Below, piece by piece: positions 6,688 through 29,635 of a stretch of 64,000 nucleotides of DNA (positions within the stretch are counted from its first letter, which is position 1; each line of letters opens with the position of its first letter). Location: the sequence record EF437941. One strand, written 5' to 3'. Origin of the DNA: Escherichia phage Phi1. A program made the position numbers and the translations under genes. The notes beneath the pieces are model-generated. The model was not told the origin of the DNA. It did not search any database and was given only the letters and a program-made list of their open reading frames with translations.

Positions 6688-8190
6688 ATGCAAGATATTA
6701 AAATTCACTTTCTGAACTACTCTCATGTTCAAATTGAATGTAGCGATTCAATTTTATTAGAAATGCGAGATTATTTTAGTTTTGAAGTCGAGGGAGCGCG
6801 GTTTCAAAAAAGATTTAAGTATGGTGGATGGGATGGGCGTATTCGTCTTTTAGATTACAACGGAAAGCTGCCAATCGGCCTAACTAAAACCGTGGGAATC
6901 TTCGCTAAAAATATGGGCTATAGCGTATGGGTAGATCCTCGCTTATTCGAAAAAGAACAAGTTACAGAAGAAGAAATTACAAAATGGTGTAATGACTTAG
7001 AATTATATTCCGGTGCTAACAGGATCACCCCTCATTGGTATCAATCAAAGGCCGTCTTTGAAGGTATTCATCATAAACGCCGTATGTTAGTTTTGCCTAC
7101 GTCCGCTGGTAAATCTGCGATTGCTTGTATGTTGTCTCGTTGGTACTTAGAGAATTACGAAGGGAAAGTGTTGATCATCGTTCCTACCACGTCGCTAGTG
7201 CTGCAAATGCGTGATGACTTTGTTGATTATCGCCAGTTTCCTTATGAAGCAATTCATACTATCATGAGCGGTACTAGTAAACACGTAGGTGATCGCCTGA
7301 TCGTTGTTAGTACGTGGCAATCTGCATGTAAACAACCTCGTGAGTGGTTCCAACAATTCGGGATGGTTATTGTTGACGAATGTCACAAAGCCACTGCTAA
7401 AAACCTGCTAAACATCGTTACTGATATGGATCATTGCCAATTTAAGATCGGCATGACTGGTTCCCCTCGTGACGGGAAAGCTAACATGATGCAGTATGTC
7501 GGGCTTTTCGGTGATATTTCTAAGATCGTGAGTATTGACCGCCTGATGGAAGAAGGGCAGGTGACAAAACTGAAAATTAACTGTCTTTTCCTTCGTTATA
7601 CCGATGAGGAATGTAGCGCGGTTAAGGGGCGAGAATATGCGGAAGAGATCAAGTATATTACGTCTAACCCACGACGAAATAAGTTTGCTTGTAATTTGGC
7701 GCTAAAACTCGCTAAGAAGGGAGAAAACGTATTCCTGATGTTCCGCAATACTAAGCACGGAAAACTTATGTATGATGCGTTACAGAAGGTACACGACAAG
7801 GTTTATTATATTGACGGTGGAGTTAAGACAGAAGAACGTGATGAATTTAAGAAAATGGCGGAGGGTGACACCGGGATCATTTGTGTTGCGTCTTATGGTG
7901 TGTTCTCTACTGGTGTTTCAATTAAGAATTTGCACCATGTTATTTTCGGTCATCCAGTGAAGGAATCAACTATCGTTCGTCAGAGTATCGGTCGTGCATT
8001 GCGTAAACATGGTTCGAAAGACATTGCAACGGTCTGGGATCTTATAGATCATCTGGCGGTGAAGACAAAGAGCAAGAATGCTAAGAAACAGTTTAGTCAC
8101 CTTAATTATGCTCTTAAACATGCCCTTGAAAGAATAAAAATTTACAACACCGACCGATTCGAATATGTCACGAAAACCATCGAGATATAA
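6688..8190 (+). CDS. uvsW: UvsW RNA-DNA/DNA-DNA helicase
   Basis: MQDIKIHFLNYSHVQIECSDS...RFKYGGWDGRIRLLDYN matches T4 UvsW MDIKVHFHDFSHVRIDCEES...RFRYGNWDGRIRLLDYN; helicase motifs LPTSAGKS and VDECH. ATG 6688 is preferred over the GTG at 6673. Confidence 0.9.
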   Translation: MQDIKIHFLNYSHVQIECSDSILLEMRDYFSFEVEGARFQKRFKYGGWDGRIRLLDYNGKLPIGLTKTVGIFAKNMGYSVWVDPRLFEKEQVTEEEITKWCNDLELYSGANRITPHWYQSKAVFEGIHHKRRMLVLPTSAGKSAIACMLSRWYLENYEGKVLIIVPTTSLVLQMRDDFVDYRQFPYEAIHTIMSGTSKHVGDRLIVVSTWQSACKQPREWFQQFGMVIVDECHKATAKNLLNIVTDMDHCQFKIGMTGSPRDGKANMMQYVGLFGDISKIVSIDRLMEEGQVTKLKINCLFLRYTDEECSAVKGREYAEEIKYITSNPRRNKFACNLALKLAKKGENVFLMFRNTKHGKLMYDALQKVHDKVYYIDGGVKTEERDEFKKMAEGDTGIICVASYGVFSTGVSIKNLHHVIFGHPVKESTIVRQSIGRALRKHGSKDIATVWDLIDHLAVKTKSKNAKKQFSHLNYALKHALERIKIYNTDRFEYVTKTIEI

Positions 8191-8233
8191 TAAATAGGGG
8201 CTTTAATGCCCCTCTATTCTACGGAGATTACAA

Positions 8234-8470
8234 ATGATTAGCTTTAAACGTTTTTTGGTTGAGGCCGCTATTGACGGTTTCATGCGTAAGATTTATTCTT
8301 GTAATACTATCGAGGGATTAAATGAACTTGAGGCATATTATGAGAAGCGCAAGAAAGAAACAGAATTGAAACCTGCTGATGATATTTCGATCCGTGATGC
8401 CATCGCTGGACGCCGTAAGCAATTGGAAGCGGACAACGAGCCAGAAGAGGAGCCGGAAGAGGATTTTTAA
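8234..8470 (+). CDS. uvsW.1: UvsW.1-like small protein
   Basis: 78-aa ORF immediately downstream of uvsW with acidic C-terminus; T4 encodes a separate ~76-aa UvsW.1 at this position. Confidence 0.65.
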   Translation: MISFKRFLVEAAIDGFMRKIYSCNTIEGLNELEAYYEKRKKETELKPADDISIRDAIAGRRKQLEADNEPEEEPEEDF

Positions 8471-8481
8471 GATATAAAAAA

Positions 8482-8500
8482 GCCCCATCAATGATGGGGC
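8482..8500 (-). terminator. hairpin terminator between the convergent uvsW.1 and uvsY operons
   Basis: Stem GCCCCATC / GATGGGGC with loop aat; a U-tract follows on the minus strand only. Confidence 0.5.
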
Positions 8501-8533
8501 AAAATAAACCAATTAAAATCGGTTATCAACAAA

Positions 8534-8710
8534 TTACATTAACAGCATTGTTTGCTCTACGAGTTGTTCTTGTTCTTCGCCGTTCGCATCTTCACTAATC
8601 GAACGTTCTGTTACTAGCTGTAAGCAGTAGCCAGTGTGAACAACGCCGTTTTCTGTCTGGACTGATAACGCATCCTCGACAGGTTGTTTACAACAAATAC
8701 AGATTTTCAT
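8534..8710 (-). CDS. small Cys-rich protein (58 aa), uvsY.-2-like by position
   Basis: ATG 8708-8710 with GGAGGA RBS; translation MKICICCKQPVEDALSVQTENGVVHTGYCLQLVTERSISEDANGEEQEQLVEQTMLLM; absent from the ORF track (under 60 aa). Confidence 0.5.
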   Translation of the reverse strand: MKICICCKQPVEDALSVQTENGVVHTGYCLQLVTERSISEDANGEEQEQLVEQTMLLM

Positions 8711-20447: not shown

Positions 20448-21002
20448 TTAGTTATTTTTTAATTGCTCATCTTGCAATAGGGAAATCACATGCTGGCGAT
20501 GTTCTTCCGATTGAGGGACACCGAAAAAGTTTGTTTTGTAGAAATACTCTAATCGGTCTTCTCGTGTGCTCTCTTCCATCATGATCGCGGGTAGTCCGAG
20601 ATTTCGGAAACGTCGCTTTTCTGCTGGCGTAAAATCACTGTAATACAGCATAGAATCATCGTTACCAGCAATGCTAAACTCATCATTCATGAAGGAGAAT
20701 ATTGCGTTTAAACGCTGTTTACCGTCCACGATTTCGATCTCATAGCGAGAGCCATCATCAATCTTAGCCATTGCGATAGCACCAACCGGAAAATCATTAA
20801 TCAGGTTTTCGATAAACATACGTTTGTTTTCGGTGTCCCATACCAAAGGACGCTGATAATCTGGGTTCATGTTGATATAGCCATCTTCTAACCACGCCTC
20901 ATAAACAGAGATGACAAAGTTTTTAGTATTGGTATAGTAACGGCGTTTAGGCGTTAAACGGTTCATGTTATAGTCTCCTGAATGGATCATCACGTAAATC
21001 AA
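20448..21002 (-). CDS. DUF262 (ParB-like nuclease/NTPase domain) protein
   Basis: Motifs NPDYQRPLVWD and VDGKQRLNAIFSF match the DUF262 signature (FQR..W ... DGQQR). Confidence 0.65.
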   Translation of the reverse strand: MIYVMIHSGDYNMNRLTPKRRYYTNTKNFVISVYEAWLEDGYINMNPDYQRPLVWDTENKRMFIENLINDFPVGAIAMAKIDDGSRYEIEIVDGKQRLNAIFSFMNDEFSIAGNDDSMLYYSDFTPAEKRRFRNLGLPAIMMEESTREDRLEYFYKTNFFGVPQSEEHRQHVISLLQDEQLKNN

Positions 21003-22503: not shown

Positions 22504-22550
22504 TGTTTGATTCTCCTAAGTGGTATCTCGTTTCGATGGTTGTATTGTAG

Positions 22551-22573
22551 GGGGAGTTATCCTCCCCTGTCAA
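22551..22573 (-). promoter_or_regulatory. PeSL-type early promoter cassette
   Basis: Hairpin ggggag-ttatc-ctcccc (22551-22567) abutting plus tgtcaa 22568-22573. Confidence 0.55.
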
Positions 22574-22587
22574 CACTTTTTATAAAA

Positions 22588-22755
22588 TTATTTGTTAATT
22601 TCTGGTGCGTTGCTAGGATAGTAACCTTCTTTAACTCCGAGGTATTTCGCAACCATCCCTACAATCTTCTGTGCTACTACAATGTCAAATTTCAGATAAT
22701 CTTCGCCGTGGGTTTCAATGATATATGCTTCACATGCTGCTTTAGTCTCGAACAT
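22588..22755 (-). CDS. hypothetical small protein (55 aa), duplicated gene copy 1
   Basis: MFETKAACEAYIIETHGEDYLKFDIVVAQKIVGMVAKYLGVKEGYYPSNAPEINK; about 90% aa identity to CDS 25863..26030. Confidence 0.55.
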   Translation of the reverse strand: MFETKAACEAYIIETHGEDYLKFDIVVAQKIVGMVAKYLGVKEGYYPSNAPEINK

Positions 22756-22794
22756 TTTGATTCTCCTATTTCGTTTCGGTATGTGTGTAGTATA

Positions 22795-22817
22795 GGGGAT
22801 CTCCCGACCCCCGTCAA
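22795..22817 (-). promoter_or_regulatory. PeSL-type early promoter cassette (imperfect hairpin)
   Basis: ggggatctcccgacccc (one substitution from the palindrome at 27233) followed by plus cgtcaa (minus TTGACG). Confidence 0.5.
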
Positions 22818-22831
22818 CAACTTTTTTAAAA

Positions 22832-23113
22832 TTATTCGTGATTAGTTTCGATGTTGTGCATTTTGCACCAGTTCAACCAATCACCCATATCTTGATAGTT
22901 GATGCTTTTATCTGCTGCCATCGTTTTTGTCTTGATACCCATATGTGCGTTATGAGTAAGCATTTTTACAGTGAACTCAATTTTATCGCCTTTAGCTTTA
23001 ACATCAACCAGTTTGGTCCACTGGCTACCAGCGCCGCGAATGTTCATACCAACGATGTTTCCGATGTATGCTTCTTTGTTTTTCAGGATTTCGGTTGCTT
23101 TGATGAATTTCAT
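22832..23113 (-). CDS. hypothetical protein (93 aa)
   Basis: ORF with conserved PeSL leader upstream. Confidence 0.55.
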   Translation of the reverse strand: MKFIKATEILKNKEAYIGNIVGMNIRGAGSQWTKLVDVKAKGDKIEFTVKMLTHNAHMGIKTKTMAADKSINYQDMGDWLNWCKMHNIETNHE

Positions 23114-23170
23114 TTTTGATTCTCCAGTTCGTTTCGGTATGGGTGTATTATGCTATGTTCTTACTTTGGT

Positions 23171-23176
23171 GTCAAC
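23171..23176 (-). promoter_or_regulatory. early promoter -35 element with conserved leader, no clear stem-loop
   Basis: Plus gtcaac (minus GTTGAC) with leader gtttcggtatgggtgtattat and RBS before the ATG at 23113. Confidence 0.4.
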
Positions 23177-23183
23177 AACTTTT

Positions 23184-23453
23184 TTAGATATTTTCAGAAA
23201 TAAATTTTAAAACTTGACGTAAATGTTTCTCATCTTTGATAGTCGCCGGAAGTTCTTCTTTTACTTCCTGTGCAAGATAGATATTTCCGTTCCAAGTGAA
23301 AGATCCGTCTTTGTTTACGCGATAGCTGAACATCCACTCGCAATCATTTTCGATTTCATATACACACAGAAGGGTGTAATCGTTAAAGCTATTGATTTCA
23401 AGGTCGAAGCCGTGACGTTTTGCAAAGTTGGTAGTGGTTTTAGTCAGTGCCAT
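23184..23453 (-). CDS. hypothetical protein (89 aa)
   Basis: ORF with conserved leader upstream. Confidence 0.55.
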   Translation of the reverse strand: MALTKTTTNFAKRHGFDLEINSFNDYTLLCVYEIENDCEWMFSYRVNKDGSFTWNGNIYLAQEVKEELPATIKDEKHLRQVLKFISENI

Positions 23454-23516
23454 TGTTTGATTCTCCTAAGTGGTATCTCGTTTCGATGGGTGTATTATGC
23501 TATAGGTCGGATCTGG

Positions 23517-23522
23517 TGTCAA
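23517..23522 (-). promoter_or_regulatory. early promoter -35 element with conserved leader
   Basis: Plus tgtcaa (minus TTGACA) preceded on the minus strand by an A-tract; conserved leader follows. Confidence 0.4.
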
Positions 23523-23552
23523 TTCTTTTTTTAAAATTTTATGCAATAAAAA

Positions 23553-23572
23553 AGCCGACGCTAAGGTCGGCT
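23553..23572 (-). terminator. Rho-independent terminator (minus strand)
   Basis: Stem AGCCGAC / GTCGGCT with loop gctaag; minus-strand U-tract (plus A-run 23546-23552). Confidence 0.55.
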
Positions 23573-23579
23573 AATAAAA

Positions 23580-23888
23580 TCATTTAGACAAATAATCATT
23601 CAGTGCAATCCGGTCGGCGTATGCTGGTGTTACGTCAATCGCAATCACTTTAACGCGTGCTTTCTTGCGACCTGGGTTTTCACGTAACCAGTGCTCATGA
23701 CCGTGAACATTTTTATACTGCGATGCTTCTTCGAAGGTACGGATCGGACCTGGGTAATCAGCGTAAAGGATCTCTAGATCTTCGGTGATGTAAAAATATA
23801 CATCATAATTACTGTTCTCTAGTTTAAGCAGAGACTTTCGGAACATTGGGAGATTTTCGCGGGTAAATTCAAAGATATTATCTTTCAT
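23580..23888 (-). CDS. HxHW-motif small protein, paralog family member 1 of 6
   Basis: YDVYFYITEDLEILYADY...HGHEHWLRENPG...VKVIAIDVTPAYADRI; shares the family pattern with five other ORFs. Confidence 0.6.
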   Translation of the reverse strand: MKDNIFEFTRENLPMFRKSLLKLENSNYDVYFYITEDLEILYADYPGPIRTFEEASQYKNVHGHEHWLRENPGRKKARVKVIAIDVTPAYADRIALNDYLSK

Positions 23889-23916
23889 AGTATTATCCTC
23901 AATAGTTGGATGAGAA

Positions 23917-23932
23917 GGGGCGTTAACGCCCC
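23917..23932 (-). terminator. GC hairpin, possible terminator or RNA-stabilising 3' structure
   Basis: GGGGCG-ttaa-CGCCCC; flanking U-tract is weak. Confidence 0.3.
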
Positions 23933-23938
23933 CATATA

Positions 23939-24226
23939 TTAAAACAGTCCTTCATGTACACCGTAGTAGAGTTCGTCGCTGATAATTTCATTAATGCGAC
24001 GGTGTGCATATTCCTGATTTGCGAAGTTGTCAGCAAGTTCTACTTTAGTTTCGCCGTCATGAGTCCATTTAGTGATAACTTTACCATCTGCAAATTTGAA
24101 GTTGAACTCTTTAGCTACTGCATCGCGTACCAGACGTGCAAACTTATTGTTGCGGATTGCATTGTCGGTTTCGTGTGAAGCGTGAGCAAATTTGTTAACT
24201 TTCAGAGTGATAGTGATGTATGCCAT
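23939..24226 (-). CDS. hypothetical protein (95 aa)
   Basis: ORF with PeSL leader; weak similarity to CDS 27265..27576 (shared AKEFN motif). Confidence 0.55.
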   Translation of the reverse strand: MAYITITLKVNKFAHASHETDNAIRNNKFARLVRDAVAKEFNFKFADGKVITKWTHDGETKVELADNFANQEYAHRRINEIISDELYYGVHEGLF

Positions 24227-24266
24227 AATTTGATTCTCCTAGTTAGAAAGTGTATCTCGTTTTGAT

Positions 24267-24301
24267 GGGGATATTATGCTATATCCCCGATCCGGTGTCA
24301 A
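24267..24301 (-). promoter_or_regulatory. PeSL-type early promoter cassette
   Basis: Palindrome ggggatat-tatgct-atatcccc (24267-24288), which contains the -10 CATAAT on the minus strand; plus tgtcaa at 24296-24301 with 17-nt spacer. Confidence 0.6.
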
Positions 24302-24307
24302 CACTTT

Positions 24308-24586
24308 TTATAAAATAATTTTTTGATATTTTTCTATGATGTTCGTGTAAGTCACATCAACCGCTAGCACCGTTGCTTCGAATCCACCGTTTAGCCAATG
24401 GCTATGATCATGGTCGTGAAAGAAACCTAGACCAGTACGAAGACCTTCTTTATATTCTGCGCGTACATTCAGTTTGTCGTCGATAAACAGATAAAACCAT
24501 GAATTTTTACTAGGATTGATGATACAACCTTTCAGATTAGGGAGAATATCACGACTAAGAATAAACTTATCACCTACTTTGAACAT
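24308..24586 (-). CDS. HxHW-motif small protein, paralog family member 2 of 6
   Basis: SWFYLFIDDKLNVRAEY...HDHDHSHWLNGGFEATVLAVDVT; start taken at ATG 24584-24586, which has a GAGGA RBS. Confidence 0.6.
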   Translation of the reverse strand: MFKVGDKFILSRDILPNLKGCIINPSKNSWFYLFIDDKLNVRAEYKEGLRTGLGFFHDHDHSHWLNGGFEATVLAVDVTYTNIIEKYQKIIL

Positions 24587-24590
24587 AATA

Positions 24591-24911
24591 TTAGTCCTCA
24601 CTTATAAGGTCAAACCAATTGTTTTTCGCATAATGCTTAATGCGTGCTTGATCTGCTTCCGCTGGTGATAGATTCCATGCAACCACTACAACTTCTGACG
24701 CATCGTCATCCGTTTCTGATACCCAATGATTGTGATTCATACAGTTATTTGCTATCGAGTGAGCAAATGATTTCATCACTGGAGACGTATAATCATAGTA
24801 ACGGATTTTCAGATTTTCATCAACATACAAATAGATCGTATAAGGTTTATATTCAGTAACCAGTAACAGACAGTTACGCAATTCTGGGAAAATCTTTTTA
24901 GTTAATTTCAT
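24591..24911 (-). CDS. HxHW-motif small protein, paralog family member 3 of 6
   Basis: YTIYLYVDENLKIRYYDY...NHNHWVSETDDDASEVVVVAWNLSPAEADQ. Confidence 0.6.
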   Translation of the reverse strand: MKLTKKIFPELRNCLLLVTEYKPYTIYLYVDENLKIRYYDYTSPVMKSFAHSIANNCMNHNHWVSETDDDASEVVVVAWNLSPAEADQARIKHYAKNNWFDLISED

Positions 24912-25113
24912 ATTCTAGTTCTCCGTAATACACGGTAATCCATTTTTCTTCATACTTTGTATCTTTCCAACACACAATACCGTTTACTGTGCAATCTTTG
25001 GAATTGACGAATGATTCATATTGTTCCGCATCTTCCATCATTTCATGAGCGGTCTTTTCATCGAATATATCGCAGATCGCTTTATATGCTCGATAATCTT
25101 TAAATTTGCTCAT
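24898..25113 (-). CDS. hypothetical small protein, tandem paralog A (MSKFKDY family)
   Basis: MSKFKDYRAYKAICDIFDEKTAHEMMEDAEQ... is paralogous to the adjacent 25116..25325 product (MSKFKDYKAYQQILRVYEPEFAEKMMEDAS). Confidence 0.55.
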   Translation of the reverse strand: MSKFKDYRAYKAICDIFDEKTAHEMMEDAEQYESFVNSKDCTVNGIVCWKDTKYEEKWITVYYGELEYEIN

Positions 25114-25115
25114 AA

Positions 25116-25325
25116 TTAACACCACTCAAGAGTTTTTGAAAACACATCTATCCATTGTTGAGTATATGCGGTTTCTTTCCATGATACAATACCAGTCGAA
25201 TAATGGTTTTTGTTTCCAGAAAAGGACGGGCATTTTGATGCATCTTCCATCATCTTTTCGGCGAACTCTGGTTCGTATACTCGCAAGATCTGTTGATATG
25301 CTTTATAATCTTTAAACTTACTCAT
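25116..25325 (-). CDS. hypothetical small protein, tandem paralog B (MSKFKDY family)
   Basis: See paralog A; start overlaps the upstream stop (ATGA). Confidence 0.55.
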   Translation of the reverse strand: MSKFKDYKAYQQILRVYEPEFAEKMMEDASKCPSFSGNKNHYSTGIVSWKETAYTQQWIDVFSKTLEWC

Positions 25326-25606
25326 AACAACACCACCGATACATCGTAATCATTCGCGGCCTTATCGGCTTCTTCAACCGACATAATACCTTCTGCGACA
25401 ATTGGCATAGGGTGATCGTGATTCCACCAATGGTCATGTATATCAATTTCAGTTTTGCCGGAAAATGAATCATGTTTGACGTTTTTCACTTTATACCCGA
25501 TGTGACCGTCGTGGTCAATAAAGATATAGTTTCCGAAAATCGGTGTCTGTAAAATCATACCGAAAAATTTTTCTTTGTTGTTCGGGTCGAGTGTAATCAT
25601 TTTCAT
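25322..25606 (-). CDS. HxHW-motif small protein, paralog family member 4 of 6
   Basis: NYIFIDHDGHIGYKV...IDIHDHWWNHDHPMPIVAEGIMSVEEADKA. Confidence 0.55.
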   Translation of the reverse strand: MKMITLDPNNKEKFFGMILQTPIFGNYIFIDHDGHIGYKVKNVKHDSFSGKTEIDIHDHWWNHDHPMPIVAEGIMSVEEADKAANDYDVSVVLL

Positions 25607-25619
25607 AATATATTCCTCT

Positions 25620-25799
25620 TAGAAAGGGATGGTCATTTCTTGAGCTTGTACATTCTCATTAGGATTAAACTTAATCCAACCGATATTGTCTACCAGCATA
25701 TGCACATTTTTATCATATCCTACGTGAGTAGTCAACACTAAATGTGATTTACCTTCAACGATGATTTCCATGTACTTCTGAACTTCGATAGCTTTCATT
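25620..25799 (-). CDS. hypothetical small protein (59 aa)
   Basis: ATG 25797-25799 preceded by GGAGAATCAAA leader; translation MKAIEVQKYMEIIVEGKSHLVLTTHVGYDKNVHMLVDNIGWIKFNPNENVQAQEMTIPF. Confidence 0.45.
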
Positions 25800-25825
25800 T
25801 TGATTCTCCGTTTGTTGTCTTGATG

Positions 25826-25860
25826 GGAGTATCTTACTACTCCCTTTAATCATTGTCAAC
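25826..25860 (-). promoter_or_regulatory. PeSL-type early promoter cassette
   Basis: Palindrome gggagta-tcttac-tactccc (25826-25845); plus tgtcaa at 25855-25860; minus-strand -10 TAAGAT sits in the loop. Confidence 0.55.
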
Positions 25861-25862
25861 TA

Positions 25863-26030
25863 TTATTTGTTAATTTCCGGTGCGTTGCTTGGATAGTAAC
25901 CTTCTTTAACACCCAGATATTTTGCAACCATTCCGGTGATCTTCTGTGCTACTACGATATCGAATTTCAGGTAGTCTTCACCGTGGGTTGCTACAAAGTA
26001 TGCTTCGCATTCTGCTTTAGTCTGGAACAT
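25863..26030 (-). CDS. hypothetical small protein (55 aa), duplicated gene copy 2
   Basis: MFQTKAECEAYFVATHGEDYLKFDIVVAQKITGMVAKYLGVKEGYYPSNAPEINK; the ORF-track entry 25863..26117 reads through the promoter, so the start is set at ATG 26028-26030. Confidence 0.55.
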   Translation of the reverse strand: MFQTKAECEAYFVATHGEDYLKFDIVVAQKITGMVAKYLGVKEGYYPSNAPEINK

Positions 26031-26069
26031 TTTGATTCTCCTATATCTCGTTGGTATGTGTGTAGTATA

Positions 26070-26092
26070 GGGGATCGGTGATCCCCTGTCAA
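26070..26092 (-). promoter_or_regulatory. PeSL-type early promoter cassette
   Basis: Minus strand reads TTGACA-ggggatcaccgatcccc-TATACT: the 17-nt palindrome forms the spacer exactly. Confidence 0.65.
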
Positions 26093-26100
26093 CAACTTTT

Positions 26101-26409
26101 TTATTCTTCATCTTCATTTTTATCTTTATATGCGTACTTCATAAATTTGTCTGCTACTTTGTCCGCGTTTTCAGGTTCTACGTCTGACGCTAGGACAACA
26201 GCTAGTTCGGTTTTGTCGTTTCCATCATACCAATGATTATGAGTGTCGTTTTCTTCGATATAAAACGAATCATTTGGAGTTGTGCGACAATATACGTCTA
26301 AATTCCCATCGATATAAAAGATCCAATCCGAATACAAAATGATTGCGTTAGCCAGATTTTTATTGTCTCTTACAAAAGGTTCCGCGACAAATAGCTTAGT
26401 TTGTTCCAT
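26101..26409 (-). CDS. HxHW-motif small protein, paralog family member 5 of 6
   Basis: DWIFYIDGNLDVYCRT...NDTHNHWYDGNDKTELAVVLASDVEPENADK; start at ATG 26407-26409 with GAGGAA RBS. Confidence 0.55.
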   Translation of the reverse strand: MEQTKLFVAEPFVRDNKNLANAIILYSDWIFYIDGNLDVYCRTTPNDSFYIEENDTHNHWYDGNDKTELAVVLASDVEPENADKVADKFMKYAYKDKNEDEE

Positions 26410-26425
26410 AATATTTTCCTCAAAA

Positions 26426-26617
26426 TTATACAGCTTCGTAAACTTCCCAATGTTCAGCGCCAACACGCTTAACGAAAAGGTTTTCTTTGATGTTATTCAT
26501 AAACGTCTGGATGGATTTAATGCGGTTGGAAGGTTTCCAGTCTTCGTTGGCATTGCGATGATACATAATAACATTACCAGTTCGCTTATATTCAGCAACC
26601 ATTTTAAGACCACACAT
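26426..26617 (-). CDS. hypothetical protein (63 aa)
   Basis: ORF with GAGGA RBS 8 nt upstream of the ATG. Confidence 0.45.
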   Translation of the reverse strand: MCGLKMVAEYKRTGNVIMYHRNANEDWKPSNRIKSIQTFMNNIKENLFVKRVGAEHWEVYEAV

Positions 26618-26674
26618 AATATTATCCTCAATTTGTGGGAGAGTATTACCCCTCCCAATGATTGTTATGTTATA

Positions 26675-26995
26675 TCACACAAAATGGCGTGTCAATGCTT
26701 CTTTTGCGGTTCCGCTAAGACTTTCGATCTCGCCTGGCATAACATCAACCGCCAGAACTTCTACAACATCCTCGGACCCTAACCAGTGAGTATGGCCTTT
26801 GTAGAACTTGATAACCAGACTACCTTCCTCATCCCATTTAACACTATCGCTAGCCCACCACACATCACCGTCGATAAAGTTGATGTAAAGCACACTACGC
26901 CACATTGAATTAATTACTTTCAATACTGCGCCTTTCATCTCTTCCACGGTATGGTCTTCCATTTTGAAGACCTCACCTACCTGAACTTTTGCCAT
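26675..26995 (-). CDS. HxHW-motif small protein, paralog family member 6 of 6
   Basis: SVLYINFIDGDVWWASD...YKGHTHWLGSEDVVEVLAVDVMPGEIESL. Confidence 0.6.
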   Translation of the reverse strand: MAKVQVGEVFKMEDHTVEEMKGAVLKVINSMWRSVLYINFIDGDVWWASDSVKWDEEGSLVIKFYKGHTHWLGSEDVVEVLAVDVMPGEIESLSGTAKEALTRHFV

Positions 26996-27012
26996 TTAGT
27001 CACCTCTCTTTA

Positions 27013-27192
27013 TTACATAACAATCACGCCAGCCGTTGAAAGTTGATGTTTCAACTGAGCATTTTCTGCTACCGTCAAATCAATGATTTCTTGTGACGCT
27101 GCAATCATATATCCATTGGTGATATTGTTTTGCATCAGTTCAATGGTTTCTTCGTTGTAGCGGATTTTAGCGATGATTTCGTTGAAGTTCAT
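27013..27192 (-). CDS. hypothetical small protein (59 aa)
   Basis: ATG 27190-27192 with GGAGAATCAATC leader; translation MNFNEIIAKIRYNEETIELMQNNITNGYMIAASQEIIDLTVAENAQLKHQLSTAGVIVM. Confidence 0.45.
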   Translation of the reverse strand: MNFNEIIAKIRYNEETIELMQNNITNGYMIAASQEIIDLTVAENAQLKHQLSTAGVIVM

Positions 27193-27232
27193 GATTGATT
27201 CTCCTAGTTCGTTTCGGTATGTGTGTATTATA

Positions 27233-27256
27233 GGGGATCTCCCGATCCCCTGTCAA
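27233..27256 (-). promoter_or_regulatory. PeSL-type early promoter cassette
   Basis: Palindrome ggggatc-tccc-gatcccc (27233-27250) abutting plus tgtcaa 27251-27256; -10 TATAAT on the minus strand. Confidence 0.65.
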
Positions 27257-27264
27257 CAACTTTT

Positions 27265-27576
27265 TTAAAGTTTTTCCATGATAACGGTCATAATTACATC
27301 TTCTGCGCGAGCGGTCAGATTATCAGCGTCAGCATGTGGGCGGTTGGTTGTTACAGAGATAACACCGTTGCGCACTGGTTTGATATTGATATCAAGATGA
27401 TCCGCGAAACGTTCGCCAGTTACAGAATGAATTTTGGTGTTAAATTCTTTTGCCAGTGCCTTGCGAACTTCACGAATCAGGGTAGCGTTTTTCAGTTGGT
27501 TCTCCGCGCTCATGGTCTTCTGGGTGTTCATGGTTCCGTCGAAGTCAATCATTGGCAGCGTTACGATGTATTTCAT
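27265..27576 (-). CDS. hypothetical protein (103 aa)
   Basis: ORF with PeSL leader. Confidence 0.55.
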   Translation of the reverse strand: MKYIVTLPMIDFDGTMNTQKTMSAENQLKNATLIREVRKALAKEFNTKIHSVTGERFADHLDINIKPVRNGVISVTTNRPHADADNLTARAEDVIMTVIMEKL

Positions 27577-27628
27577 TTTTGATTCTCCGTTTAAGAAAGT
27601 GTGTTTCGTTTTGATGTGTGTATTATAA

Positions 27629-27651
27629 GGGGATCACCGATCCCCTGTCAA
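27629..27651 (-). promoter_or_regulatory. PeSL-type early promoter cassette
   Basis: Palindrome ggggatcaccgatcccc (27629-27645) abutting plus tgtcaa 27646-27651. Confidence 0.65.
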
Positions 27652-27663
27652 CAACTTTTTGAA

Positions 27664-28140
27664 TTATTTTTCTTGATGCTCGCGCTCGTACTTTTCGAAA
27701 TAAAATTCTACTGGCTGATCGTGGATTGAAAGCAAGCCAAAGCGTTTAGCCGCTCGCAATCCCATATTGCGCTGAATGTACTTCTGGAAGTTCTCGCGTA
27801 TACACTTACGCCAGGATTCTAAGCCCATACAGCTTTTATAAAGATTGCATTGCACACACGCCGGATTCATGTTATCAAGTATATCATGCTCCGGTTTATG
27901 CATTCCTACAACCTTATACTTCCACGATCCATCATCATTACGAGCAATTCGTCCATTTTCATCATAGACTACCTTTGAGCGTCGTAATACTGGTTTGATG
28001 TGGTCTGCGTGCCAGCGATCCCCTAGTTCCTCGCCACAATAGGCACAACGTCCACCATATTTCATTTTCAGGATCTGGCGTTGCTCTTTCTTTGACAATT
28101 TTTTAGGTTTAGGGGCTTTCGCCCCTTCATTATCACACAT
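27664..28140 (-). CDS. HNH endonuclease (putative homing endonuclease)
   Basis: HNH signature CAYCGEEL...WHADHIKP...NMNPACVQCN; start overlaps the 3' end of the DNA ligase gene. Confidence 0.7.
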   Translation of the reverse strand: MCDNEGAKAPKPKKLSKKEQRQILKMKYGGRCAYCGEELGDRWHADHIKPVLRRSKVVYDENGRIARNDDGSWKYKVVGMHKPEHDILDNMNPACVQCNLYKSCMGLESWRKCIRENFQKYIQRNMGLRAAKRFGLLSIHDQPVEFYFEKYEREHQEK

Positions 28141-29635
28141 CGAATACCTCTTTTACTGTATTTGCAGTGGTCTTGTCGTAGCGAATACGTTTGATGATCG
28201 GGAGAAATAAAGAGAACTCCGGTTCATCTTCTTTACGTGATTTGCTTCGAATGTACCCGTTGCATGTCATCTCAATGACTTTTCCGACCAGGTTATGCCG
28301 TTCAGCCCATAACATTTCTCGGTCAAGATCATTTCGACGATCGAACGGAATTACACGTTCAATACCATCATCACATTTTTCGGTTGTGGTGTCAGTCAAT
28401 CCCGATCCGGTGTTAGTCATCATTCGTCCGCACGCACTACGGACAGTAAAACCGCCCACCTTATTAGGATCTTTACTATGCGGATATACATCAACAATTT
28501 CCGCGTCGAAGTCAATCACTTCTTTAAATTTAACCTGATCTTTACTGCGACGATCTTCAAATACACCATGTAAATTTTTAAGGATAATACCTTCTAATCC
28601 CATGTTTACATAGCGATGATATACTTCGCGAGCTTCATCGAGATTGTTAACTACGGTATTTTCGATTATCTGAACACGAGGATCGTTAAGTTCTTCAACA
28701 ATCTGTTTTAGTTCCTCAAATCGATCTTTATACTGCTTCGTTGCTTTCTCGTTACCGTAGTACACATCACGGTCGATAACATCCCAGACAGTGTAAACAA
28801 TACATTGGGCTTCTTCTTTTGGAATAGTTCCTTTCAGTGATTTGTTGAGGATACCATTTCCGGTCTGACGATCTGCAACAACGGATTCTTTCACTGCTTC
28901 CGTTACTGGCGTTAATGGCATTTCCTCTTCTTCAAATATCCATGACAGAGTACCATCATAAACGCTCTCAACGAAGTTCTGCGCTGGTGTTTGCGAAAGG
29001 GTAGGCATATATACCAATTCGCCATCTAGAACAATTCCACGGCCTCGTAAACGCTCTAAAACCGCAAACAAATCATCAAGCCCTTGATAGGTATTACCTG
29101 AGCGGGTATAGATTGCTAATGTTTCCCCGTCAATATCAGCCATCCCACGAGCGCCATCGCTTTTAAGTTGTGCATACGCCGGATACTTGATATTAGCAAT
29201 AGTCTTGTCAGAACATGACGATGCAAGGTGGCACGGCTGCTGGGGGATCAGTTTCTTCCATACCTTGTTTGCAGTGGTAGCGGAACAACCGCATTCCAGG
29301 TCACGATTCAGGACCATCATTGCAACTTTAGCATCATCCTCTGACAAGCAAGTCAGAGTATCGGTAACTAGCTGTAATGCTGCATTACCAGTTACTTGAC
29401 GCGTGGCAAGTTTATTTTTAAAGACCTGTAATGCACCGGATAAAGACAATACAGACGAATAACGCGATGGTTTATCGTATTTCTTTACGCCAAACGTAAC
29501 CTGTTTGCAATATGCCAGATAAAAGCATTCTTTCAGCGTTTCATTGCTCGCGGATTCTTTCAGAATCTTTTCTTTCAGCGATGTTTTGTCTGTTGCTGCA
29601 AGCTGATTAATGATATTAAGAATTGACATTTTCAC
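28133..29635 (-). CDS. 30: ATP-dependent DNA ligase gp30
   Basis: Matches T4 ligase blocks: AMMVLNRDLECG...ANKVWKKLIPQQP, KADGAR, GELVY, NKSLKGTIPKEEAQC, EGIILKN, KFKEVIDFDAEIV. Confidence 0.9.
   Translation of the reverse strand: MKMSILNIINQLAATDKTSLKEKILKESASNETLKECFYLAYCKQVTFGVKKYDKPSRYSSVLSLSGALQVFKNKLATRQVTGNAALQLVTDTLTCLSEDDAKVAMMVLNRDLECGCSATTANKVWKKLIPQQPCHLASSCSDKTIANIKYPAYAQLKSDGARGMADIDGETLAIYTRSGNTYQGLDDLFAVLERLRGRGIVLDGELVYMPTLSQTPAQNFVESVYDGTLSWIFEEEEMPLTPVTEAVKESVVADRQTGNGILNKSLKGTIPKEEAQCIVYTVWDVIDRDVYYGNEKATKQYKDRFEELKQIVEELNDPRVQIIENTVVNNLDEAREVYHRYVNMGLEGIILKNLHGVFEDRRSKDQVKFKEVIDFDAEIVDVYPHSKDPNKVGGFTVRSACGRMMTNTGSGLTDTTTEKCDDGIERVIPFDRRNDLDREMLWAERHNLVGKVIEMTCNGYIRSKSRKEDEPEFSLFLPIIKRIRYDKTTANTVKEVFDV

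Follow-up and report, generated by a model that had tools for sequence, protein, structure and literature searches.

In T4-like phages, early genes without a known function number in the hundreds; some have proved to be inhibitors of host machinery or immunity, and multi-copy accessory gene families are a known phenomenon in the hyperplastic regions of T4-type genomes. Escherichia phage Phi1 (sequence record EF437941, of which we analyzed a stretch of 64,000 nucleotides (nt), hereafter the window) raises the question of whether six small minus-strand genes between positions 23580 and 26995, all of them encoding the motif His-x-His-Trp (HxHW), are relatives of one another and, if they are, what their products may do for the phage. 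The window comes from a T4-like coliphage of the RB49 group (Krischvirus, Straboviridae), with phage GEC-3S as its top match at 98.7% identity. We find that the six open reading frames (ORFs), here called m1 to m6, constitute one paralogous family that arose by duplication and divergence. Their positions, lengths in amino acids (aa) and GEC-3S counterparts are as follows:

23580..23888, minus strand: m1, 102 aa, 309 nt; GEC-3S BN201_0200; HEHW at residues 64-67, nt 23688-23699.
24308..24586, minus strand: m2, 92 aa, 279 nt; GEC-3S BN201_0202; HSHW at residues 61-64, nt 24395-24406.
24591..24911, minus strand: m3, 106 aa, 321 nt; GEC-3S BN201_0203; HNHW at residues 60-63, nt 24723-24734.
25322..25606, minus strand: m4, 94 aa, 285 nt; GEC-3S BN201_0206; HDHW at residues 57-60, nt 25427-25438.
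26101..26409, minus strand: m5, 102 aa, 309 nt; GEC-3S BN201_0209; HNHW at residues 57-60, nt 26230-26241.
26675..26995, minus strand: m6, 106 aa, 321 nt; GEC-3S BN201_0211; HTHW at residues 68-71, nt 26783-26794.

The ORFs called in the first-pass annotation of the window are real genes: all six coincide with annotated GEC-3S coding sequences of equal length, and each has a GAGG/GGAG-type ribosome-binding site 5-9 nt 5' of its ATG. The stop codon of m3 and the ATG of m2 are separated by 4 nt. Near-identical initiation regions (TTGAGGATAATAxTATG) lie at 23886-23914, ahead of m1, and at 26615-26643, ahead of an unrelated 63-aa gene between m6 and m5.

We searched for H.HW in all six-frame ORFs of at least 40 aa in the window (607 ORFs, 51,797 residues). 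The motif occurs six times, against 0.56 occurrences expected from composition, and every occurrence is within m1-m6. A six-way alignment places H-x-H-W in one column in all six members, as had been anticipated, and leaves four invariant positions: H64, H66, W67 and A83 (m1 numbering). The second His and the Trp do not vary in family alignments of 27 and 34 sequences, and the first His is retained in more than 90% of the 34. The proteins had been described as His-rich, a label that suits m4 (7 of 94 residues) but overstates the other five: m1 to m6 contain 3, 4, 4, 7, 2 and 4 His per ~100 residues, respectively, and those of m5 are the motif pair only.

Pairwise identities among the six are 22-32%, and the similarity is weak save between m1 and m3. 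Leaving out one orthogroup at a time, we built a profile from the remaining five and searched it against the 607 window ORFs for the omitted sixth. The omitted member was the top non-training ORF each time (E = 1.9e-12 for m1, 3.7e-10 for m2, 1.4e-13 for m3, 4.2e-4 for m4, 2.3e-10 for m5 and 5.7e-10 for m6), with the next unrelated ORF at E>=0.02. Comparison of the orthogroup alignments by hhalign gave 98% for m1-m3, 91.5% for m1-m5, 85% for m1-m6, 80% for m1-m2 and 62% for m4-m5. The most divergent member is m4, which also shows the weakest leave-out recovery. Rather than placing the six ORFs in unrelated families, then, profile searches recover every one of them (E 1.4e-13 to 4.2e-4). The single family with a common architecture proposed at first pass is borne out by leave-out profiles, hhalign, cross-matches to the PHROGs database and the predicted topology of m1 and m4 alike. 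A profile of the six found no seventh member in the window.

The proteins themselves are not new to databases, where they appear as 'hypothetical protein' and in five PHROGs, all labeled 'unknown function', which they match end to end (E ~1e-49 to 1e-72). Both m1 (E=4.5e-49) and m3 (E=4.2e-52) belong to phrog_9345; m2 belongs to phrog_17255 (E=2.3e-65) and m5 to phrog_15965, both of them cross-matching phrog_9345; m4 falls into phrog_15972 and m6 into phrog_16486. Cross-matches thus join m1, m2, m3 and m5 firmly and m6 marginally (E=0.01), and there is none for m4. PHROGs 9345, 17255, 15972, 15965 and 16486 hold the same proteins as our family, but split into five unconnected, unannotated groups. 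What is new is their union: we join the five PHROGs into one superfamily because of the cross-matches, the profile-profile scores, the leave-one-out profiles and a common predicted fold.

That fold comes from AlphaFold2 models computed with the family alignment for two of the six members, m1 (predicted local distance difference test score (pLDDT) 85.9, predicted template modeling score (pTM) 0.81) and m4 (pLDDT 92.4, pTM 0.85). The two models have an identical order of secondary-structure elements. The N-terminal part consists of a short strand, a one-turn helix, three strands and a variable loop; the C-terminal part comprises a short helix starting at HxHW, a fifth strand ('VLAxDV') and a long C-terminal helix ('PxEAD...'). 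The predicted structure is compact, a small beta-sheet or half-barrel core of five strands with the variable loop, the short HxHW helix and the C-terminal helix. Isoelectric points (pI) range from 4.3 to 6.9, m5 being very acidic (pI 4.3), the grand average of hydropathy is zero or below in 6/6, and charge goes down to -13; by these properties the proteins look cytoplasmic and unlike DNA-binding proteins.

As the first-pass annotation had supposed, we find no characterized homolog: nothing scored above cutoffs in Pfam or NCBIfam for any of the six genes, or in Pfam for any of the 34 family members, and PDB sequence searches with four family profiles gave nothing significant. PADLOC returned 0 families at E<=1 for all six, which says little either way as it covers defence and not anti-defence proteins. 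The significant matches of the m1 model in BFVD are all Escherichia phage proteins (from kvi, PHB13 and JSE), which we read as other family members. Searching the literature for HxHW and for studies of anti-defence in Krischvirus returned nothing relevant, and RB49 papers searched by term do not mention the family; a term search of Arbiol et al. 2010 (PMC2839356) found no mention of the six genes as a family, of their paralogy or of HxHW. By sequence, and as far as the models indicate by fold, the family is an orphan.

Several well-known metal or nucleotide families share His-x-His with the family, namely histidine triad (HIT), cupin, JAMM/MPN and metallo-beta-lactamase (MBL), and m1 and m2 even read HxHxH. 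HIT proteins are defined by H-phi-H-phi-H-phi-phi, where phi is hydrophobic, together with the HIT alpha+beta fold, and m1-m6 do not fit this definition. The JAMM/MPN-related PROCT model is matched by 2 of the 34 members, at best with 18.7 bits against a cutoff of 23.6, and no Ser-x-x-Asp stands at the spacing past HxH that the JAMM/MPN site E...H-x-H-x7-S-x2-D requires. One member matches Cupin_2 (E=0.19, 11.9 bits against a cutoff of 27.2), and the predicted fold is mixed alpha/beta with ~5 strands. Tis1, the immunity protein of the type VI effector Tas1 (PDB 6ox6_B), scores under the usual homology threshold, with 6-12% identity and no HxHW.

How widely is the family distributed? A word-indexed search of 5.8 billion proteins returned 86, all of them orthologs of the six and none with a Pfam domain; a second such search with a broader profile added nothing new. 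An exhaustive profile scan of 1.84 billion representatives yielded about 20 clusters at E<=1e-3. With the exception of P0096, these are small proteins of ~70-200 residues, phage-encoded where the source is known; among them are divergent members of 84-111 aa and a natural fusion of two family domains, P0087. P0096, a 1034-aa MAM-like repeat protein, is a spurious match, in which the E-value sums seven repeats of <=11 bits each and the Trp is unaligned. Among 50,697 phage records, tblastn with the divergent members matched Krischvirus records only; bases 23000-28000 of the window match 57 phage records, and every named taxon among them is an RB49-like coliphage (Krischvirus). In T4, profile scans of two stretches, one including the alt-ligase region, found no family member, nor did the scan of 1.84 billion representatives find one from T4. 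The family is restricted to T4-type phages of the RB49-like group (Krischvirus), plus a few relatives that have not been cultured.

The array is old and stable. Family-profile scans of fetched loci find the order m6-m5-m4-m3-m2-m1 to be identical in GEC-3S, RB49, LF73P4 and JK32. A scan of IMG/VR found one locus; five members lie on an IMG/VR contig. The 2.1-kb metagenome contig L002 encodes m6-like, fusion, m4-like and m3-like proteins, five family domains in all, in the order of the array; the fusion, P0087 (L002 823-1434), is a 203-aa protein of two family domains. Two m5-like genes lie between ligase and alt on a T4-like contig with hardly any DNA in common with cultured phages, and m5, with m5-like genes in L003 and L004, is the subfamily most widespread in uncultured relatives. 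The subfamilies are already distinct in divergent uncultured T4-like phages. L011, a 169-kb Krischvirus-like metagenome genome, has six members, two divergent m3-like genes (7989-8671) replacing m3 and m2.

We estimated the ratio of nonsynonymous to synonymous substitution (dN/dS, by the Nei-Gojobori method) for the window against four relatives. It is 0-0.24 for most ortholog pairs, and the few values above this range are based on under 10 substitutions. The m4 slot is occupied by two allele types, that of the window and GEC-3S and that of RB49, JK32 and LF73P4, with 55-58% aa identity between them and synonymous divergence (dS) saturated; m5 orthologs are 74-96% identical across the relatives compared (L007-L010). 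The picture is one of purifying selection with occasional slot-wise allele replacement, and not of recent expansion. The repeated duplication and diversification suggested at first pass needs to be qualified accordingly: the paralogs did arise by duplication and divergence, but the duplications are ancient and the order is kept in all four cultured relatives; diversification is seen as alternative alleles at single slots (m4, m5, m3/m2), but not as fast point evolution. Inside each orthogroup nearly every column is conserved over the full length, and between orthogroups the skeleton only, which is the pattern expected of subfunctionalized binders. In two m1 orthologs, P0071 of phage kvi (85 aa) and P0086 of phage JSE (80 aa), apparent frameshifts after or within the motif region truncate the protein; either m1 is dispensable in these phages or the frameshifts are sequencing errors.

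The genomic setting is that of accessory genes. In GEC-3S the counterpart region contains ~23 'hypothetical protein' genes with annotated early promoters scattered between them, flanked by ATP-dependent DNA ligase and HNH endonuclease on one side and by DNA methyltransferase and alt on the other. Since in T4 one small gene alone (alt.1) parts alt and gene 30, whose product gp30 is the DNA ligase, we regard the six-gene stretch as a lineage-specific hyperplastic region. It is punctuated by stem-loop/early-promoter (PeSL) cassettes: eight copies of a ~65-80-nt repeat in which a GC-rich hairpin stands beside TTGACA-N17/18-TATAAT. Such cassettes, along with slot-wise replacement, have been described in this same phage group (Arbiol et al. 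2010, PMC2839356; Comeau et al. 2014, PMC4122927): in RB49/phi1 the PeSLs are experimentally early promoters and terminators (PMC2839356), and they mediate cassette shuffling (PMC2839356, PMC4122927). Around m1-m6 we find the following elements:

27219..27282, minus strand: PeSL cassette, repeat families D2 and D3; promoter 27256..27227, a perfect TTGACA-18-TATAAT (12/12), annotated as a promoter in GEC-3S.
26043..26107, minus strand: PeSL cassette, repeat families D2 and D4; promoter site 26092..26064 (11/12); ends the m6-m5 block.
25859..25831: promoter-like site (10/12); with the PeSL at 26043..26107 it heads the m4-m3-m2 block.
24252..24316, minus strand: PeSL cassette, repeat family D4; promoter 24301..24273 (11/12); ends the m4-m3-m2 block and heads the m1 block.
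23553..23572, minus strand: terminator-like hairpin with a T run, 8 nt past the m1 stop; annotated as a terminator in GEC-3S.
23473-23537: PeSL, repeat family D4; follows the terminator-like hairpin.

The genes fall into three blocks, each with a PeSL on both sides. From the PeSL at 27219..27282 the first runs through a 59-aa gene, m6, the 63-aa gene and m5; from 26043..26107 the second runs through a 55-aa gene, a 59-aa gene, m4, two phrog_8471 genes, m3 and m2; and from 24252..24316 the third consists of a 95-aa gene, m1 and the terminator, the hairpin at 23553..23572 being the sole terminator-like site in 23000-28200. Each of the six genes had been placed near a PeSL, which stands in the sense that all lie in PeSL-bounded blocks, but none (0/6) is the first gene after one. 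The T4-type late promoter TATAAATA is absent from 23000-28200. From these sequence signals we predict early transcription of the six genes by the sigma-70 RNA polymerase of the host, starting at PeSL promoters.

What, then, might the six proteins do? We tentatively favor, as a reading that has a real though less than even chance of being right, early cytoplasmic binding modules directed against host or defence targets, with HxHW as their common functional site. The common scaffold of ~100 residues, soluble and neutral to acidic by its predicted properties, would serve as a binding module; HxHW would provide two His for holding a metal or ligand, perhaps with a partner subunit completing the site, or else form a conserved contact surface; and the paralog-specific loop before HxHW, together with the remaining surface, would direct each copy to a host or defence target of its own. 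The array would then amount to a set of accessory takeover or counter-defence tools. The accessory character of the genes is apparent from their absence from the scanned T4 stretches, the Krischvirus-only tblastn result, the mere ~20 clusters, the allele swaps at single slots and the truncation of m1 in kvi and JSE. A role in host takeover or counter-defence fits the early sigma-70 promoters, the lack of late promoters, the hyperplastic location and the biology of RB49, which has unmodified cytosines and DNA shown to be Cas9-targetable (PMC4041780). Unmodified cytosines would plausibly create a need for protein-based counter-measures, which we offer as context and not as evidence. The P0087 fusion and the 4-nt spacing of m3 and m2 hint that copies may work as dimers. 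A bolder version, which we consider rather unlikely, is that the proteins have a new fold and assemble as homo- or heterodimers in which two HxHW motifs supply the four His (His4) of a metal or ligand site, the six paralogs making up a modular counter-defence toolkit, with every member disabling another of the host immunity or stress pathways that confront the phage because its cytosines are unmodified.

Several observations weigh against binding modules built around HxHW. The first His is Ser in P0083 and P0085, both m5-type orthologs, and is missing in P0091. The metal binding suggested at first pass would call for at least three conserved ligand residues close together, but no third or fourth ligand column is conserved, the two motif His being the only conserved ones in the 34-sequence alignment. 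HxHW is at the start of a short helix in the m1 and m4 models, a position in which residues i and i+2 are less than ideal for chelating one ion. A fast arms race would less typically go with a stable copy number and such strong purifying selection. Finally, no member is linked to a target, a defence system or a metal, by homology or by experiment.

Among the alternatives, the one that survives best, unlikely as we take it to be, is that m1-m6 are small enzymes or sponges of small molecules such as a nucleotide signal, with the His pair catalytic or phosphate-binding and the Trp stacking on a base. However, neither sequence nor fold comparison links them to 2H, HIT, MBL, cupin or known sponge families; six differently diverged copies that share just three residues would be unusual for an enzyme; and some natural variants do without the first His. 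About one chance in ten, in our estimate, attaches to regulators associated with nucleic acid, the ribosome or RNA polymerase, with a KOW/Sm/Tudor-like small beta-barrel that tunes early transcription or translation. Small barrel domains such as KOW, Tudor/Spindlin, Sm, FeoA and DUF1541 are among the nearest comparisons. All scores to such barrels are below significance, Pfam KOW is matched by 0/34 members, and nucleic-acid binding is unfavorable because most members are acidic, with the charge of -13 as the extreme.

It is very improbable that m1-m6 are internal proteins, packaged in the capsid and entering the cell along with the DNA as T4 IPI* or the neighboring Alt does. The genes do adjoin alt, and the m5 N-terminus, MEQTKLFVAE, loosely resembles the T4 capsid-targeting sequence, MKTYQEFIAE. 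The five other N-termini are unlike it, however, and both the m1 and the m4 model place the N-terminal residues in the first strand of a confident fold; we reject this explanation because late promoters are absent and the genes stand behind early ones. Equally hard to credit is a remote relationship to the copper-binding SH3-like domain DUF1541 (YdhK/CopL). In its favor, conserved His and Met of the CopL DUF1541 domains are predicted to form copper-binding clusters (PMC5947656), and the m2/m6 profile does pick up B. subtilis YdhK chains over VGDxVxL...MKGA...VYxVDY, but at E 0.065-0.22, with HxH aligned to a His-tag and an hhalign value of 0.1%; the relationship is already disfavored. Least probable of all is that the similarity is due to chance or that some of the six ORFs are unrelated: low pairwise identities and the weak hhalign links of m4, which has no PHROG cross-match, speak for it, but the leave-one-out recovery of each member, the motif in 6/6, the topology common to m1 and m4 and the match of the m1 model to other Krischvirus family members in BFVD already refute it for five members, m4 excepted.

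The surroundings of the array bear their own marks of duplication, with three further paralog pairs in the same 6-kb stretch. The 95- and 103-aa proteins encoded at 23939-24226 and 27265-27576 (minus strand) are paralogs, both matching phrog_7474, of unknown function, end to end (E ~1e-43), and each gene is the first after a PeSL. Tandem phrog_8471 paralogs of ~70 aa lie between m4 and m3 at 24898-25125 and 25116-25325 (minus strand), their 5' ends carrying an 88-nt repeat of 72% identity. A 300-nt direct repeat of 78% identity (22534-22833 and 25809-26108) contains the 55-aa gene duplicated with its PeSL, and looks like a whole cassette copied within the region. An HNH endonuclease gene of 158 aa at 27664-28140 (minus strand), the start of which overlaps the end of the DNA ligase gene (28133-29635), is also present in GEC-3S, JK32 and L011 and is probably a homing-type insertion. 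Farther away, the gene at 20448-20966 (minus strand, 172 aa) has an L011 counterpart by gene order and length with a precomputed PF03235 (GmrSD_N/DUF262) match; NCBIfam gives none for the window protein. Such a match would mean that the phage encodes its own copy of a domain familiar from type IV restriction enzymes.

Taken out of five separate groups of hypothetical proteins, the family is now described by a fold predicted with confidence, a signature of three residues, a clear setting for its expression and alleles that vary in nature. Six small soluble proteins are a compact and tractable target, with HxHW as one obvious mutational probe. Should the proteins turn out not to be inhibitors, the cost of finding out would be small; if they do act as inhibitors, a new structural class would be gained.

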